Source of the DNA: Clostridia bacterium
GTDB taxonomy: Bacteria; Bacillota; Clostridia; Oscillospirales; CAG-272
Reading direction: 5' to 3'
Assembly (NCBI GenBank): GCA_017456545.1
Contig: JAFTJE010000017.1
Location: 6,981 to 70,980, forward strand
DNA: 64,000 nucleotides
Numbering within the stretch: the stretch's first letter is position 1; every line of letters starts with the position of its first letter. The position numbers and the translations under genes are program-made. The notes beneath the pieces were generated by a model. It was not told the origin of the DNA. It worked only from the letters and a program-made list of their open reading frames with translations, and searched no databases. Shown here one piece after another: positions 4,553 to 15,854 of the stretch.

Positions 4553-4592
4553 ACAGTACCGTACACAAAAACCGTGTACGGTACTGTTTTTT
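4553..4592. terminator. Bidirectional intrinsic terminator between convergent genes
   Basis: Perfect 14-bp inverted repeat ACAGTACCGTACAC / GTGTACGGTACTGT with a 7-nt loop, an A-run upstream and a T-run downstream. It sits between the stops at 4538 (+) and 4591 (-). Confidence 0.85.
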
Positions 4593-7500
4593 ATTGAACT
4601 ATAAACATATACTCACATAAATTTCCGTTTACCGAGGCGATTATCTTATATGTGCCCACACTTAAGGGAGCATCTAAAAGATTTACTATTACTACCCCAC
4701 TTGTATCCTCATAGGTAATATTGTTTGGAGTTATATCGGTATAAATATCAAATCCTCCGTTTGCATTCTTTTTGTAAATGCCTCCGGAAACTGTATCGAT
4801 TGTACCGGTCATATGAGTATTAAAGACTACTCTCTGTGCTCCTTCCTCCAGGATACGGTCATCCATTGTTATGTAAACCTTAGAGCTGCTTGTATAACTC
4901 AGAATAATTGTAAAACTATTTTCCGAGCTTCTTCCGGAGAGTGAATACATACTCTCCTCGTTAGTACATATTCTTATATCGGCAGAAACGGAATAAACCT
5001 CTCCGTTGTTAAGATTTTCTATAATCAATGTATACTCTCTTCCGTTCATATTAGCCGGACCAAGAGAGAAGGTATACAAGCCCTCAACACATCTGGGATA
5101 CAATATTATTCCGTCGGAGGTTTTAAGATATATAGAGGAGCCGTCGGGCAGCATCGGTATTCTGACGGACAGAATATTATCATATCCGGAAATCGAGCTG
5201 GCACCGTTTGAAGTGATTTTTATCGGAATTTCAGCCACTCCCACCACATTTTTGTCTGTAGGTGTTTCAGTAAAGCCTGCTTCAATTGCCGAAATAGGCT
5301 CAACGGTTACAGTCTCCATATCCCCGAAGCTTACTATCATTCTTTCAAATTCACCACCCTCGGCAGATTCAACACAGAACTGATATTTAATATGAGCATT
5401 AGGGCTTACTGTAATACTGTCATCAGCCATAAGCTTGAAGCAGTCAAGCGTAATATATGTTTTACCGTCAATTATGTCGCTTTCCTGCACGGAGTATGCG
5501 TAATACATAGCTCTTGTGCTTGAAAAGTCCACAAGTGTAATCTTTGTTCCCACATCGAGAGCAACGGAGAATTCCAATTTCATTCCCACTGTGTAGCTTG
5601 CCTCATAATAAATGGAGAACGCCTTATTTGCCGGCATTTTTATAACCTTATCAGCACCGGAAACAACGGTAAAGCTCTTTTCGGGGGAAGTAAATACATT
5701 GGTTTCAAATACATTGAATCTTATAAGGTAATCGGTTTCAATATAATCGTAGTTACCCTCGGGGGATGCCTCTACATAAGCCTTTACATAGTATGTATTA
5801 ACGCTTAAGCCTATGACATCCTTGCTGACCTCTGAATCCAAATCACCTGTGGGTGATGTGTAATACTTATATTTTACCGTTCCCCACTTTGCATTAACAA
5901 CAGGGTTTACACCCTCGTTAAGGGTTGAGTTTACAACTATATCGTTACAGGAAAGCCTTTGTCCCTGCCACTCATTCTCACCCTTTGTAACAGTTAGAGC
6001 TCTGCTTCCCTTAACGGGAATATAATTCTGGTCGGCATATTCTGCATTCGCCGTGATATAGAAGTACACTGTATCACTACCCACATTTATTCTTGTAATA
6101 TGAGTATTCTTAAATACTCCCGCACCCGAAAGATAAGCTTCGTCAGGGTTATCAGGGAATTCTGTCAAGCTGTAATAAACATCAAATTTAGATGTTTGCA
6201 CCTGCATACCGATATGGTGTTCCTCATTATTATATACCTTACTTGTATCCTGCGCATCATAGGAAATCTCTCCTATTGTGGATGCAAATATTCTCATATT
6301 ACCCTTTTGGAACGCAGAGCCCTTGATTGTAAGAGTCTTGGTTTCCGCATCAAACATATAGTCAGTATCAAGAGAAAGTATTGTTCCGTCAACCAGCTCT
6401 ACAGTCGGGGTAACAAGTACACGGTCCGAGGCCGTTGTACCCAAAACTATAACAAGGTCACCGTTCTTTACCGTAATGCTCTGCTCTGTAACTGTGGCAG
6501 TATATATTTTTATTATACCTCTTGCAGAAAAGTTCTCTTTATTTCCTTCATTCATATCACTTACAGCATATAAAACACCGTTGGATACATAGCCTATAAG
6601 CTCAAATGAGAATTCTCCATCATTAAGTGTAGCTGTAAAATCAGCATTGGTTCCCGTATATTCATATGTACCTACGCTGATATTAGATACTCCGTTATTA
6701 TCGTTAAACGCCTCATTAAGGTGAAGATGTCCATCACCGTCTTTAAGAACAAGTGTACCTGTACCCGAGATAGCGGGAGAGCCCTCGGGCGAGTCTATTT
6801 TAATGGATGAGCCGTCTGTTGAATTTAACTTCAGTGTGGCTCCCTCATCTATAAAGATAGCTGATGAGCCGGGCTTAGTGGATGAAACAGAGTTATCTGC
6901 TTCACTGTAAAACAAGTTCAAGGTACCCGAGCTTACATTTATTGCAGAATAATCGGAGGATACACTTACTGTATCAAGATGTACCTCTATCTCCTTATCC
7001 TCACAATCTATATTTAACTTACTTGAGCACGGTAAACCACCTGTGGTAAGATAGAGTGCACCGTCGTAGCCAGTAATGGTATAGCCGTTTTGCTCTATTA
7101 TTACACCGCCCTTGGGGTCGGATGTAACTGTTACATCACCGTTATACCAGTCTATAACAAAGAATTTCCCTTCTGCAGTAATGACTTCAAACAATATTGT
7201 AATATCATTGTCTACCGTAAAGGTTTTTGTATATTTTCCGGCAATGCCCGCTACAGGATCGAGCTCTGCACTCTTCTGAAATGTCTTATTACCATTAGCA
7301 TCTATTACAGACACATATGGCTGAACTGTATAATAATTTCCAAGCTCATCCTGCTTTGATTGCAGATAATAGGTGAATTGATCGTTCTGAGAGCAGAATA
7401 CAACACCTGTATACGGTTTTGAATCTGCTTCAAAAAGGTCATAATATTGAGACATTACAAGGGTTACCATATAACGCCTGTAACCGTTGTCAAGGCGTAA

Positions 7501-15673: not shown

Positions 15674-15824
15674 ATGTCTCTCCTTATGTAAAAAATTTTC
15701 GCAGTTACGAAGGCGTTTCCATTCTCATGGGAAAATCGCCGTTGGATATTTATGCACTGATTTTCCCTTGAAACCGGTATTCGAAGAACGCTTTATCTTC
15801 GATAAAACACCTATGGTAATTAAA

Positions 15825-15854
15825 ATTATATAATATCAATCAACTTTCTGTCAA
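15825..15854 (-). promoter_or_regulatory. Candidate sigma-A promoter of the SipW/fibre operon
   Basis: On the minus strand: TTGACA (15849-15854), 18-nt spacer, TATAAT (15825-15830). It lies about 150 nt upstream of the first start codon. Confidence 0.5.

Follow-up and report, generated by a model that had tools for sequence, protein, structure and literature searches.

A conserved two-peptidase gene cluster of gut Clostridia and other Gram-positive bacteria that may encode a cell-anchored, pilus-like fibre

A stretch of 64,000 nucleotides from a Clostridia bacterium (Oscillospirales; CAG-272), positions 6,981 to 70,980 of contig JAFTJE010000017.1 in assembly GCA_017456545.1 and hereafter called the window, carries a cluster of nine head-to-tail open reading frames (ORFs), all on the minus strand and running from 15673 down to 4591, which were named in this analysis, in 5′ to 3′ order, U, P1, A, B, T, P2, m, n and G. 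We judge it slightly better than an even chance that this cluster builds a cell-anchored, pilus-like fibre, broadly of the type known from the SipW/TasA, BsaA, tafi and AbpX systems, from an undescribed protein family. A sequence-only reading of the window had counted ten genes here, and the gaps between the ORFs were scanned and held no credible tenth, so that the number is nine. Its placing of same-strand ORFs with short gaps or overlaps was right, as U and P1 have one base in common, T and P2 overlap by 7 nt, and m–n and n–G lie only 8 and 4 nt apart. It had also regarded the locus as one elaborate module that it did not recognise as a described system, a view that agrees with the conserved gene set reported below and with literature searches, in which no description of this cassette was found.

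Five of the nine products form, by sequence comparison, one paralogous set of acidic beta-sandwich proteins. These are A (249 aa, 13270..14019), the putative major subunit, with the signal ISGTFA↓KY (the arrow marks the predicted cut), then D-x-ARVAKWG and a beta-sandwich with two helices; B (239 aa, 12381..13100), a second A-type subunit and paralogue of A with the LAKY and DSARVAKWG motifs as in A; T (296 aa, 11413..12303), a pilin-like protein considered further below; m (153 aa, 10279..10740), a minimal minor subunit with a FARY signal, a donor-like SANVAKY and an eight-stranded beta-sandwich; and n (253 aa, 9509..10270), a second minor subunit with a MAKY signal but without ARVAK. A and B share 42% identity (E 5e-60), and HHalign related A to m (99.5%), A to T (99.3%, 193 columns), m to T (98.6%) and m to n (97.1%). 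Cross-matches between the families within the window agreed with this paralogy, and iteration of hidden Markov models (HMMs) without a reciprocal-best filter fused the two peptidase families, and likewise A, T and m, which is informative on homology in itself.

The signals of the four small proteins A, B, m and n are of the basic-hydrophobic type and end in FAKYT, LAKYT, FARYT and MAKYY, as the sequence-only reading had noticed. In the A family the signal ends in ISGTFAKY[VT]T, with AKY in 78 of 87 members, and the corresponding ends are SGLYA[RK]Y in the m family and AKY[IV] in the n family. Behind the signal, D-S-A-R-V-A-K-[WF] is common to A and m and missing from n. Inspection of the signals for a twin arginine found none, and they are of Sec type; the mature small proteins are acidic (pI 4.2–4.3). 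The conserved signal motif lies behind the hydrophobic helix, unlike that of class III signals, which are cut before the helix, and a Pfam search of the nine proteins for type IV pilus families (prepilin peptidase, assembly ATPase) found none.

The A family has no Pfam or NCBIfam model. It has 22 invariant columns, ten of which fall within residues 10–47. AlphaFold2 (AF2) models based on deep alignments reached a pLDDT of 83.6 for A, with nine strands and two helices, and 88.2 for m, with eight strands. In the A model, residues 31–40, directly after the predicted cut, have a pLDDT of 56, and only loop 61–80 is lower, while in the m model residues 31–50 (58–63) form the least confident part of the mature chain. 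The segment behind the cut is thus the most conserved and yet of low confidence in the models, which fits an intermolecular role.

Two further features of the subunits were observed. A motif W-x-W-(x)n-D-x-x-D-T-x-L-G-N occurs at residues 206–224 of A and ~190–215 of T, and is not found in the shorter m; it could be a metal-binding or subunit-interface element. Calcium-dependent strand complementation has been reported for AbpX and cannulae (AbpX: bioRxiv 10.64898/2026.01.04.697558). Four large proteins, P0130, P0187, P0203 and P0258 (1,094–1,321 aa), contain 5–12 tandem stretches resembling the core of m (residues ~76–142), suggesting that the m domain also serves as a repeat module of big surface proteins.

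The claim that the cluster encodes two peptidases with the Sec11/SipW signature proved sound. P1 (266 aa, 14115..14915) is a SipW/Sec11-type signal peptidase I with an acidic cytoplasmic tail, and P2 (192 aa, 10841..11419) is a second, divergent one, each having two hydrophobic spans, one N-terminal and one C-terminal. Both exceed the curated cut-off (51.85 bits) of TIGR02228, the archaeal/ER-type signal peptidase I model, P1 with 89.7 and P2 with 63.8 bits. The boxes found in the pair are SMEPE in both, the His boxes VTHEI and VVHKV, and the boxes TKGINN and TRGTANNKDD. Among homologues gathered from related loci, residues S73, M74, H118, N140 and D144 of P1 are kept in at least 90% of 74 proteins and S54, M55, H90 and N107 of P2 in at least 90% of 79, and from these kept Ser/His/Asn(/Asp) boxes both enzymes are predicted to be catalytically intact. 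Neither reached the cut-off (190 bits) of NF046067, the Bacillus SipW equivalog, P1 scoring 96.1 and P2 38.4 bits; they are of the same class as Bacillus SipW but not its orthologues. BLASTP detected no similarity between P1 and P2; their family HMMs cross-match each other, and they are old paralogues.

T gives the cluster a candidate base. As had been proposed, it is subunit-like with membrane spans at both ends, at residues 19–52 (the N-terminal signal anchor) and 263–291, the latter followed by a basic tail at the C-terminus. It is homologous to A over the whole sandwich, including the APGT and W.W...D..DT.LGN motifs; AKY and ARVAK are both missing from it, and a variable, often low-complexity linker follows its signal anchor. 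On this sequence evidence T is a paralogue of the major subunit and the putative cell-proximal anchor.

In 42 of 73 species-level relatives, T carries a PxTG sorting signal, [LIVSAP]PxTG[D] with a hydrophobic span and K/R, such as PPQTGD, LPVTGD, SPITGD or APQTGD, and near-variants occur in several more. Three of ten tested T proteins match Pfam Gram_pos_anchor, one of them above the cut-off (L079, 21.5 bits vs 20). These signals resemble the (S/P)PxTG signals recognised by clostridial sortase B. A sortase-like TLxTC ORF was found in four of 80 loci and none nearby in the other 76, so that a housekeeping sortase would have to anchor T. The T of the window ends in ...EHGGTVR, a transmembrane span and NKRLNKW, without PxTG, and its clade (window, L005, L006, L011, L022, L024, L041) has E[HY]GGT[VI]R, a span and NKRxNKW, likewise without PxTG, which indicates that this clade probably swapped the sorting signal for a plain membrane anchor. 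The nine window proteins contain no LPXTG-like motif, and a Pfam search of them found no sortase, type IV pilus, flagellar or type VII secretion family, just as the sequence-only reading had stated. Its description of the locus as sortase-independent therefore fits the window and, presumably, the polymerisation, but not the family as a whole.

In seven relatives (L014, L015, L036, L038, L050, L061, L078), T lacks PxTG and has an extra C-terminal domain behind the transmembrane span. This domain ends in ...ISAEAR..I..AGG.V.IT, with a by-eye likeness only to the C-terminus of ribosomal protein uL15. The layout of T with the extra domain resembles the published description of the DUF5305 partners of peptidases; the window T and ten relatives had no match to Pfam DUF5305.

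The gene set is conserved across relatives. These were collected by a pattern scan with one genome per species, and at least 358 species-level genomes encode one; the best 80 of them were taken for loci, genes were counted with family-specific HMMs built from reciprocal-best hits, and presence was counted where flanking sequence sufficed. The core order P1-A-T-P2-m, often with n and a giant ORF, is kept in ~70 of the 80 genomes, and the same order in ~70 independent species-level genomes is far beyond chance. Of the loci counted, 59 of 60 have P1, 66 of 67 have T and 65 of 67 have P2, and in 46 of 55 an ORF of at least 800 aa lies no more than 4 kb downstream of P2. Genes of the m type were found in 60 of 84 loci and those of the n type in 21 of 84, and n, where present, always stands behind m and ahead of the giant ORF. 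P1 is followed by A (68/69), A by T (72 loci), T by P2 (68/70) and P2 by m (56/65). The co-occurrence of the genes across relatives, which the sequence-only reading had offered as a check on its proposal, is thus clearly positive. The constant P1–A and T–P2 pairs suggest a division of labour between the two peptidases, with separate substrates or with T helping P2.

The locus comprises a constant core, P1-A-T-P2, and a distal module that varies more. In L001/L006, a close relative syntenic with the window (same PTS, MutS and metallo-beta-lactamase (MBL) flanks), U-P1-A-T-P2 is kept and m, n and G are absent, with a 672-aa ORF of no Pfam domain on the opposite strand in their place (~12750–14768); the distal module thus appears to be gained or lost as a unit. 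In L003, a more distant relative, the genes run P1-T-P2-A-m-n-G and the giant is 1878 aa long. A second A–P2 pair downstream of the first P2 was seen in L011 and L024.

The family is large and widespread. A has at least 2,806 homologous clusters at 90% identity; no Pfam domain is present among the 120 matches listed, and the few names given by their sources are all "hypothetical". For m, a single-sequence database search found only m itself and one close relative, hence an exhaustive search of representatives was made, which gave 579 representative clusters. Most of the best 80 loci belong to metagenome-assembled genomes of gut and rumen origin. Their carriers include, within the Clostridia, Oscillospiraceae (incl. 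Faecousia), Lachnospiraceae, Acutalibacteraceae and Peptococcaceae, and in addition some Bacilli/Erysipelotrichaceae and Coriobacteriia, namely Parolsenella and an isolate, Adlercreutzia sp. ZJ176, whose locus lies on NZ_JAAKEC010000011.1.

The last gene, G (1637 aa, 4591..9504), was correctly read as encoding a secreted, Gly-rich protein. Its Sec signal, ...PVEA↓ET, is an ordinary one and is followed by a Gly-rich region at ~41–600 (16.8% Gly) and a variable remainder without an anchor motif; no transmembrane span, LPXTG, or Pfam, NCBIfam or PDB sequence match was found in G. Giants that co-occur with n are conserved only over residues ~45–570 and have a common ..YYFI[IV] motif at the extreme C-terminus. 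Other loci have other giants, which differ in C-terminal motif (e.g. WLNGNS..KN), and some of these contain Listeria-Bacteroides repeats (Flg_new), InlB B-repeat or DUF7601, typical Gram-positive surface-protein repeats that count in favour of a surface fibre. In L011 and L024 the giant (1,207 aa) bears a pilin-type signal, ...APTLSKYVGN, where others have the ordinary Sec type, which also speaks for the fibre. The position of G is conserved and its spacing tight, its start lying 4 nt after n. G is a putative adhesin. Of the earlier proposal of a tip adhesin, the kept position of the giant speaks for it, and against it G has no known domain and no detectable pilin-like C-terminal domain. A pilin-like acceptor domain ending G was considered and rejected, as the last 330 residues of nine related giants gave HHalign values of <1% against A, m, n and T.

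At the other end of the cluster, U (252 aa, 14915..15673) has an N-terminal transmembrane span, a Pro-rich linker and a C-terminal domain of no assigned function, with sub-threshold Pfam matches only. Homologues were found in nine of 84 loci, all in close relatives and each time directly upstream of P1, so U appears to be an accessory gene of the window clade.

How the subunits relate to TasA was addressed by profile and structure comparison. A TasA family profile was built from 111 PF12389 proteins, and the TasA sequence was checked against 8AUR (mature end A28). HHalign matched m to this profile with 84.2% (E 7e-6) over 72 columns, covering the signal and the N-terminal half only, while A (6.9%), T (8.8%) and n (15.9%) stayed low. 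The alignments set the A↓RY of m and the A↓KY of A onto the A↓AF of TasA, the known SipW cut. The donor strand of TasA consists of residues 28–38, right behind this cut, and TapA has the N-terminal motif of TasA (PMC9674648). Among AbpX homologues, mature position 2 is conserved as an aromatic residue (bioRxiv 10.64898/2026.01.04.697558), and an aromatic stands there too in the AF of TasA and the [KR]Y of the A/m type.

Among curated models, m matched the BsaA model TIGR04090 with 22.5 bits (E 7.7e-5), under its 60-bit cut-off, and of 146 m-family members 13 had weak matches to BsaA, four to Peptidase_M73 (all sub-threshold), one to TasA and one to TapA; the m family also weakly matches CARDB, DUF1616, FixG_C and WxLIP Ig-like families. 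The TapA model TIGR04087 gave E 0.012 at best, and there is no TapA homologue in the cluster. None of 85 A-family members matched Peptidase_M73 or any NCBIfam SipW-substrate model. Because M73 was not matched and the HHalign similarity is partial and confined to m, these proteins seem to lie outside the TasA/camelysin family as defined and to be at best a remote branch of the TasA superfamily. The earlier label "TasA-like" is therefore weak, with a possible remote link for the N-terminal half of m and no value above 16% for A, T and n. A camelysin-type protease function was rejected, there being no Peptidase_M73 match; the protease name of camelysin is itself viewed in the literature as a probable misidentification.

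Foldseek of the A model against the PDB gave nothing significant, with the caveat that the models retain the signal helix, which lowers sensitivity. The best matches of A were the PapG pilin domain (E 0.024), FimG and the cannula subunit 9h8b (E 0.078), and those of m were generic sandwiches only (PliG 1.6e-4, GOLD, MSP domains, Ena2A). The A and m family profiles, searched against PDB sequences, found nothing relevant (FimA type V E 0.3; Hydin Ig repeats), and no PDB chain of the AbpX/TasA superfamily matched. A jellyroll fold of the TasA type had been expected of the small proteins, and the models bear this out as far as a beta-sandwich is concerned but not as a fold recognisably TasA's. A spore-appendage (Ena-like) reading was set aside, since the Ena2A matches are weak (probability 0.35, TM-score 0.16–0.20) and the promoter is of vegetative type.

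Several characterised systems share parts of this design. Like tapA-sipW-tasA of B. subtilis (PDB 8AUR, 5OF1), the cluster has a SipW-type peptidase gene adjoining genes of secreted beta-sandwich subunits, a signal of the form small-x-small↓x-aromatic (GTWA↓AF in TasA, GTFA↓KY here) and a minor protein with the N-terminal motif of the major subunit (TapA there, m here). That operon has a single peptidase, whereas this cluster encodes two, together with an anchored pilin paralogue (T) and a giant downstream protein; it has no TapA, and the only similarity of its subunits to TasA is the HHalign match of the N-terminal half of m, with no Peptidase_M73 or Foldseek match. The sipW-bsaA-bsaB-bsaC operon of C. 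perfringens is likewise clostridial and encodes, beside a SipW peptidase, two paralogues of TasA type and BsaC, a larger secreted protein with a VWA domain; donor-strand exchange and growth from the base have been proposed for BsaA, which has an isopeptide triad N35/K74/E56. The weak similarity of m to the BsaA model points in the same direction, but m scores far under the cut-off, and the bsa operon has no second peptidase, anchor paralogue or protein of the size of G.

The sequence-only reading had described related operons as having one peptidase, one or two subunits and no giant adhesin, a description outdated by the tafi and AbpX loci, which have a tip, adaptor or minor subunits and an anchor. 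Haloarchaeal tafi consist of the core TafA, adaptor TafE, tip TafC and anchor TafF, with the signal peptidase TafD and the DUF5305 protein TafG (PMC11821415). A tip/adaptor/core/anchor logic via donor strands, with an S26 peptidase in the cluster, is what we propose here from genes alone; tafi differ in being archaeal and Tat-dependent, with a four-transmembrane peptidase and DUF5305, whereas the present cluster has Sec-type signals and no detectable sequence relationship to them. For AbpX-like loci of the TasA superfamily, genes for major and minor subunits, predicted tip proteins and signal peptidase I are reported, and the bacterial ones have SLH or LPXTG anchors predicted by AF3 to join the fibril, as in Clostridium amylolyticum, where an LPXTG anchor protein is predicted to join it by strand complementation (bioRxiv 10.64898/2026.01.04.697558). 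AbpX resembles the present subunits in its acidity and in the aromatic residue at mature position 2, but its mature position 4 is acidic where T or S stands here, and its peptidase has ten transmembrane spans and DUF5305, in contrast to two peptidases of two spans and no DUF5305 match here. A dedicated signal peptidase, major and minor subunits, and a putative tip and anchor are thus found here as in tafi and AbpX loci. Chaperone–usher and type V pili are also Ig-like heteropolymers with tip adhesin, adaptors, rod and terminator or anchor, and the weak top Foldseek matches of A are to PapG and FimG; with E ≥ 0.024 and no chaperone, usher or outer membrane here, this is an analogy only. Multi-component loci of the TasA superfamily with tip, minor subunits, anchor and dedicated peptidase have therefore already been described, and the general idea is not new. 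What is distinct here is the uncurated subunit family, the two peptidases with two transmembrane spans each, the anchor paralogue of the major subunit and the giant, variable distal proteins.

According to the mechanism that we propose, A, B, m and n would be exported by Sec, and P1 and/or P2 would cut them behind the small residue of G-T-F-A↓K-Y (A↓[KR]Y), the equivalent of GTWA↓AF in TasA. The freed N-terminal segment, K-Y...D-S-A-R-V-A-K-W/F-G-V, would act as a donor strand inserted into the beta-sandwich of a neighbour, so that A (and B) would form the shaft as a non-covalent polymer. T, a sandwich without donor motif, would receive the last donor strand and fix the fibre to the cell, through its C-terminal membrane span in the window genome and through sortase attachment to the wall in most relatives. 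Since m has the donor motif of A, it would connect the shaft distally with n and G; the conserved N-terminal ~500 residues of G would dock it there, and its variable remainder would bind targets. We infer the donor-strand polymerisation by analogy with TasA, BsaA, ABP, tafi and AbpX, and the tip position of G from adjacency. A broader proposal, that the loci represent a widespread, so far unrecognised class of Gram-positive pilus in gut and rumen anaerobes, with a donor-strand shaft of 'AKY' pilins, two ER-type peptidases with separate tasks, a pilin-like base held by sortase or membrane, and hypervariable giant tips of 1,100–2,300 aa, we put forward tentatively, as somewhat short of an even chance; within it, the pilus would be a hybrid of TasA-type and sortase-type strategies.

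A number of observations weigh against an anchored fibre. The polymer, its cleavage and the surface structure are all deduced from genes. TasA fell outside the Foldseek top 50 for both the A and m models (signal helix retained), the PDB including 5OF1 and 8AUR; A, B, T, m and n had no match at E ≤ 0.1 to Pfam PF12389 Peptidase_M73, and no subunit matched the TasA (NF046066) or BsaA NCBIfam models above cut-off. The absence of m, n and G from L001 and L006 shows the distal module to be dispensable, and as no pilin-like or donor-strand element was found in G, it is by adjacency alone that G is assigned to the fibre. Finally, the transmembrane–sandwich–transmembrane layout of T, its extra domain in seven loci and its coupling to P2 would also fit an accessory subunit of a peptidase.

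That last possibility, in which T would be a DUF5305-like partner of P2 and the cluster mainly a maturation and export module for G and the small sandwich proteins, appears rather unlikely to us. T and P2 are indeed adjacent in nearly all loci and overlap in the window, T shows the DUF5305 layout of a transmembrane span, an extracellular beta-sandwich, a second span and a cytoplasmic domain, with the extra domain in the seven relatives, and tafD with the DUF5305 gene tafG occurs as duplicated pairs in some haloarchaea, e.g. Natrinema sp. SLN56 (PMC11821415). However, no T protein searched matched DUF5305, T is homologous to the major subunit over its entire domain, and 42 of 73 T proteins bear a sorting signal, through which the C-terminal membrane span would be lost. 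It is unlikely too, though we would place it somewhat above the accessory role of T, that the cluster makes a released matrix scaffold of the TasA/BsaA biofilm type, with G merely a co-expressed matrix or surface protein. Those characterised systems that come closest, TasA, BsaA and AbpA/AbpX, are biofilm matrix fibres, no element joining G to the subunits was detected, and m, n and G are all absent in some relatives; against a released matrix, T, a pilin paralogue, carries a membrane or wall anchor in nearly every locus, and the m-(n)-giant order is strongly kept, with tight spacing.

The small proteins might also be monomeric secreted or surface sandwiches of CARDB/Ig-like kind with a specialised signal peptide and form no polymer, which we consider improbable. 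Consistent with monomers, the Foldseek and HMM matches of m are generic Ig-like, GOLD, MSP and CARDB-type sandwiches, and the AF2 monomers have complete and confident folds; but TasA monomers are self-complemented too (PMC9674648), the flexible stretch behind the cut is the most conserved part of A and m, which is hard to explain for a monomer, and heteropolymeric fibres typically have such a fixed, stoichiometric set of paralogues, one of them an anchor. A classical sortase-polymerised Gram-positive pilus would account for the PxTG signal on T of most relatives and for the sortase-like TLxTC ORF in four of 80 loci. It is nevertheless the least credible of the alternatives, with a very small chance in our estimate, as sorting signals are missing from A, B, m, n and G, the window cluster has neither sortase nor LPXTG-like motif, and 76 of 80 loci have no sortase-like ORF nearby.

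The transcriptional layout of the cluster had been recognised from the sequence and was reproduced here. The cluster has its own sigma-70-type promoter (15825..15854, minus strand), a TTGACA-18-TATAAT that matches the consensus at 12 of 12 positions, followed by a leader of ~150 nt before U; the leader was checked against Rfam for a riboswitch or cyclic di-GMP element, with no match. At the other end, a bidirectional intrinsic terminator (4548..4592) with a 20-bp hairpin and an A-run and a T-run on its sides lies between convergent genes and is common to the cluster and the convergent MBL-fold gene. Within the cluster, the A–B intergenic region (13101..13269, minus strand) has a minimum free energy of -57.7 kcal/mol (z = -6.6) and two strong hairpins, one a 10-bp GC-rich stem and the second terminator-like, with flanking A- and U-runs at 13154..13140. 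Across 72 relatives, the 160 nt 3′ of A average -54 kcal/mol vs -39 for the 160 nt 3′ of m. These hairpins may be an attenuator or an mRNA-stabilising element behind the major-subunit gene, and together with the stronger RNA structure after A in relatives they fit an over-production of the major subunit.

The cluster has the same GC content as its surroundings, and its neighbours are housekeeping genes for PTS (phosphotransferase system) EIIA, PTS EIIBC, two MutS_V proteins, RmuC and an MBL-fold hydrolase. Family HMMs found no other copies of the cluster families elsewhere in the window. The MutS_V genes are adjacent paralogous ORFs (478 and 490 aa) at 19118–22029 (plus strand), each with MutS domain V only, and the pair is also kept beside the cluster in L001. 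A second perfect TTGACA-18-TATAAT match occurs at 3806–3835 (minus strand), upstream of the minus-strand ORF 3072–3755 (227 aa, no Pfam match), just past the convergent MBL-fold gene. An AdoCbl-II (cobalamin) riboswitch at 26832–26913 (minus strand; 48.7 bits vs gathering 36.5), directly upstream of the minus-strand ORF 26227–26790, is unrelated to the cluster.

The attachment of the dominant gut Clostridia (Oscillospiraceae, Lachnospiraceae and relatives) to fibre particles, mucus and each other is poorly understood, and their genomes are rich in "hypothetical" surface genes. Defining the A family would provide an annotation handle for thousands of genes. If the proposed model holds, donor-strand fibres with dedicated peptidases would extend from the biofilm matrix to true anchored Gram-positive pili, a non-covalent shaft on a sortase-anchored base would be a new combination, and the variable giants would be candidate determinants of niche or host specificity. 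The cultured carrier Adlercreutzia sp. ZJ176 makes the fibre idea testable. What makes the cluster interesting is above all how widely it occurs in gut anaerobes that are poorly understood, together with the hybrid design of shaft and base that it may represent.

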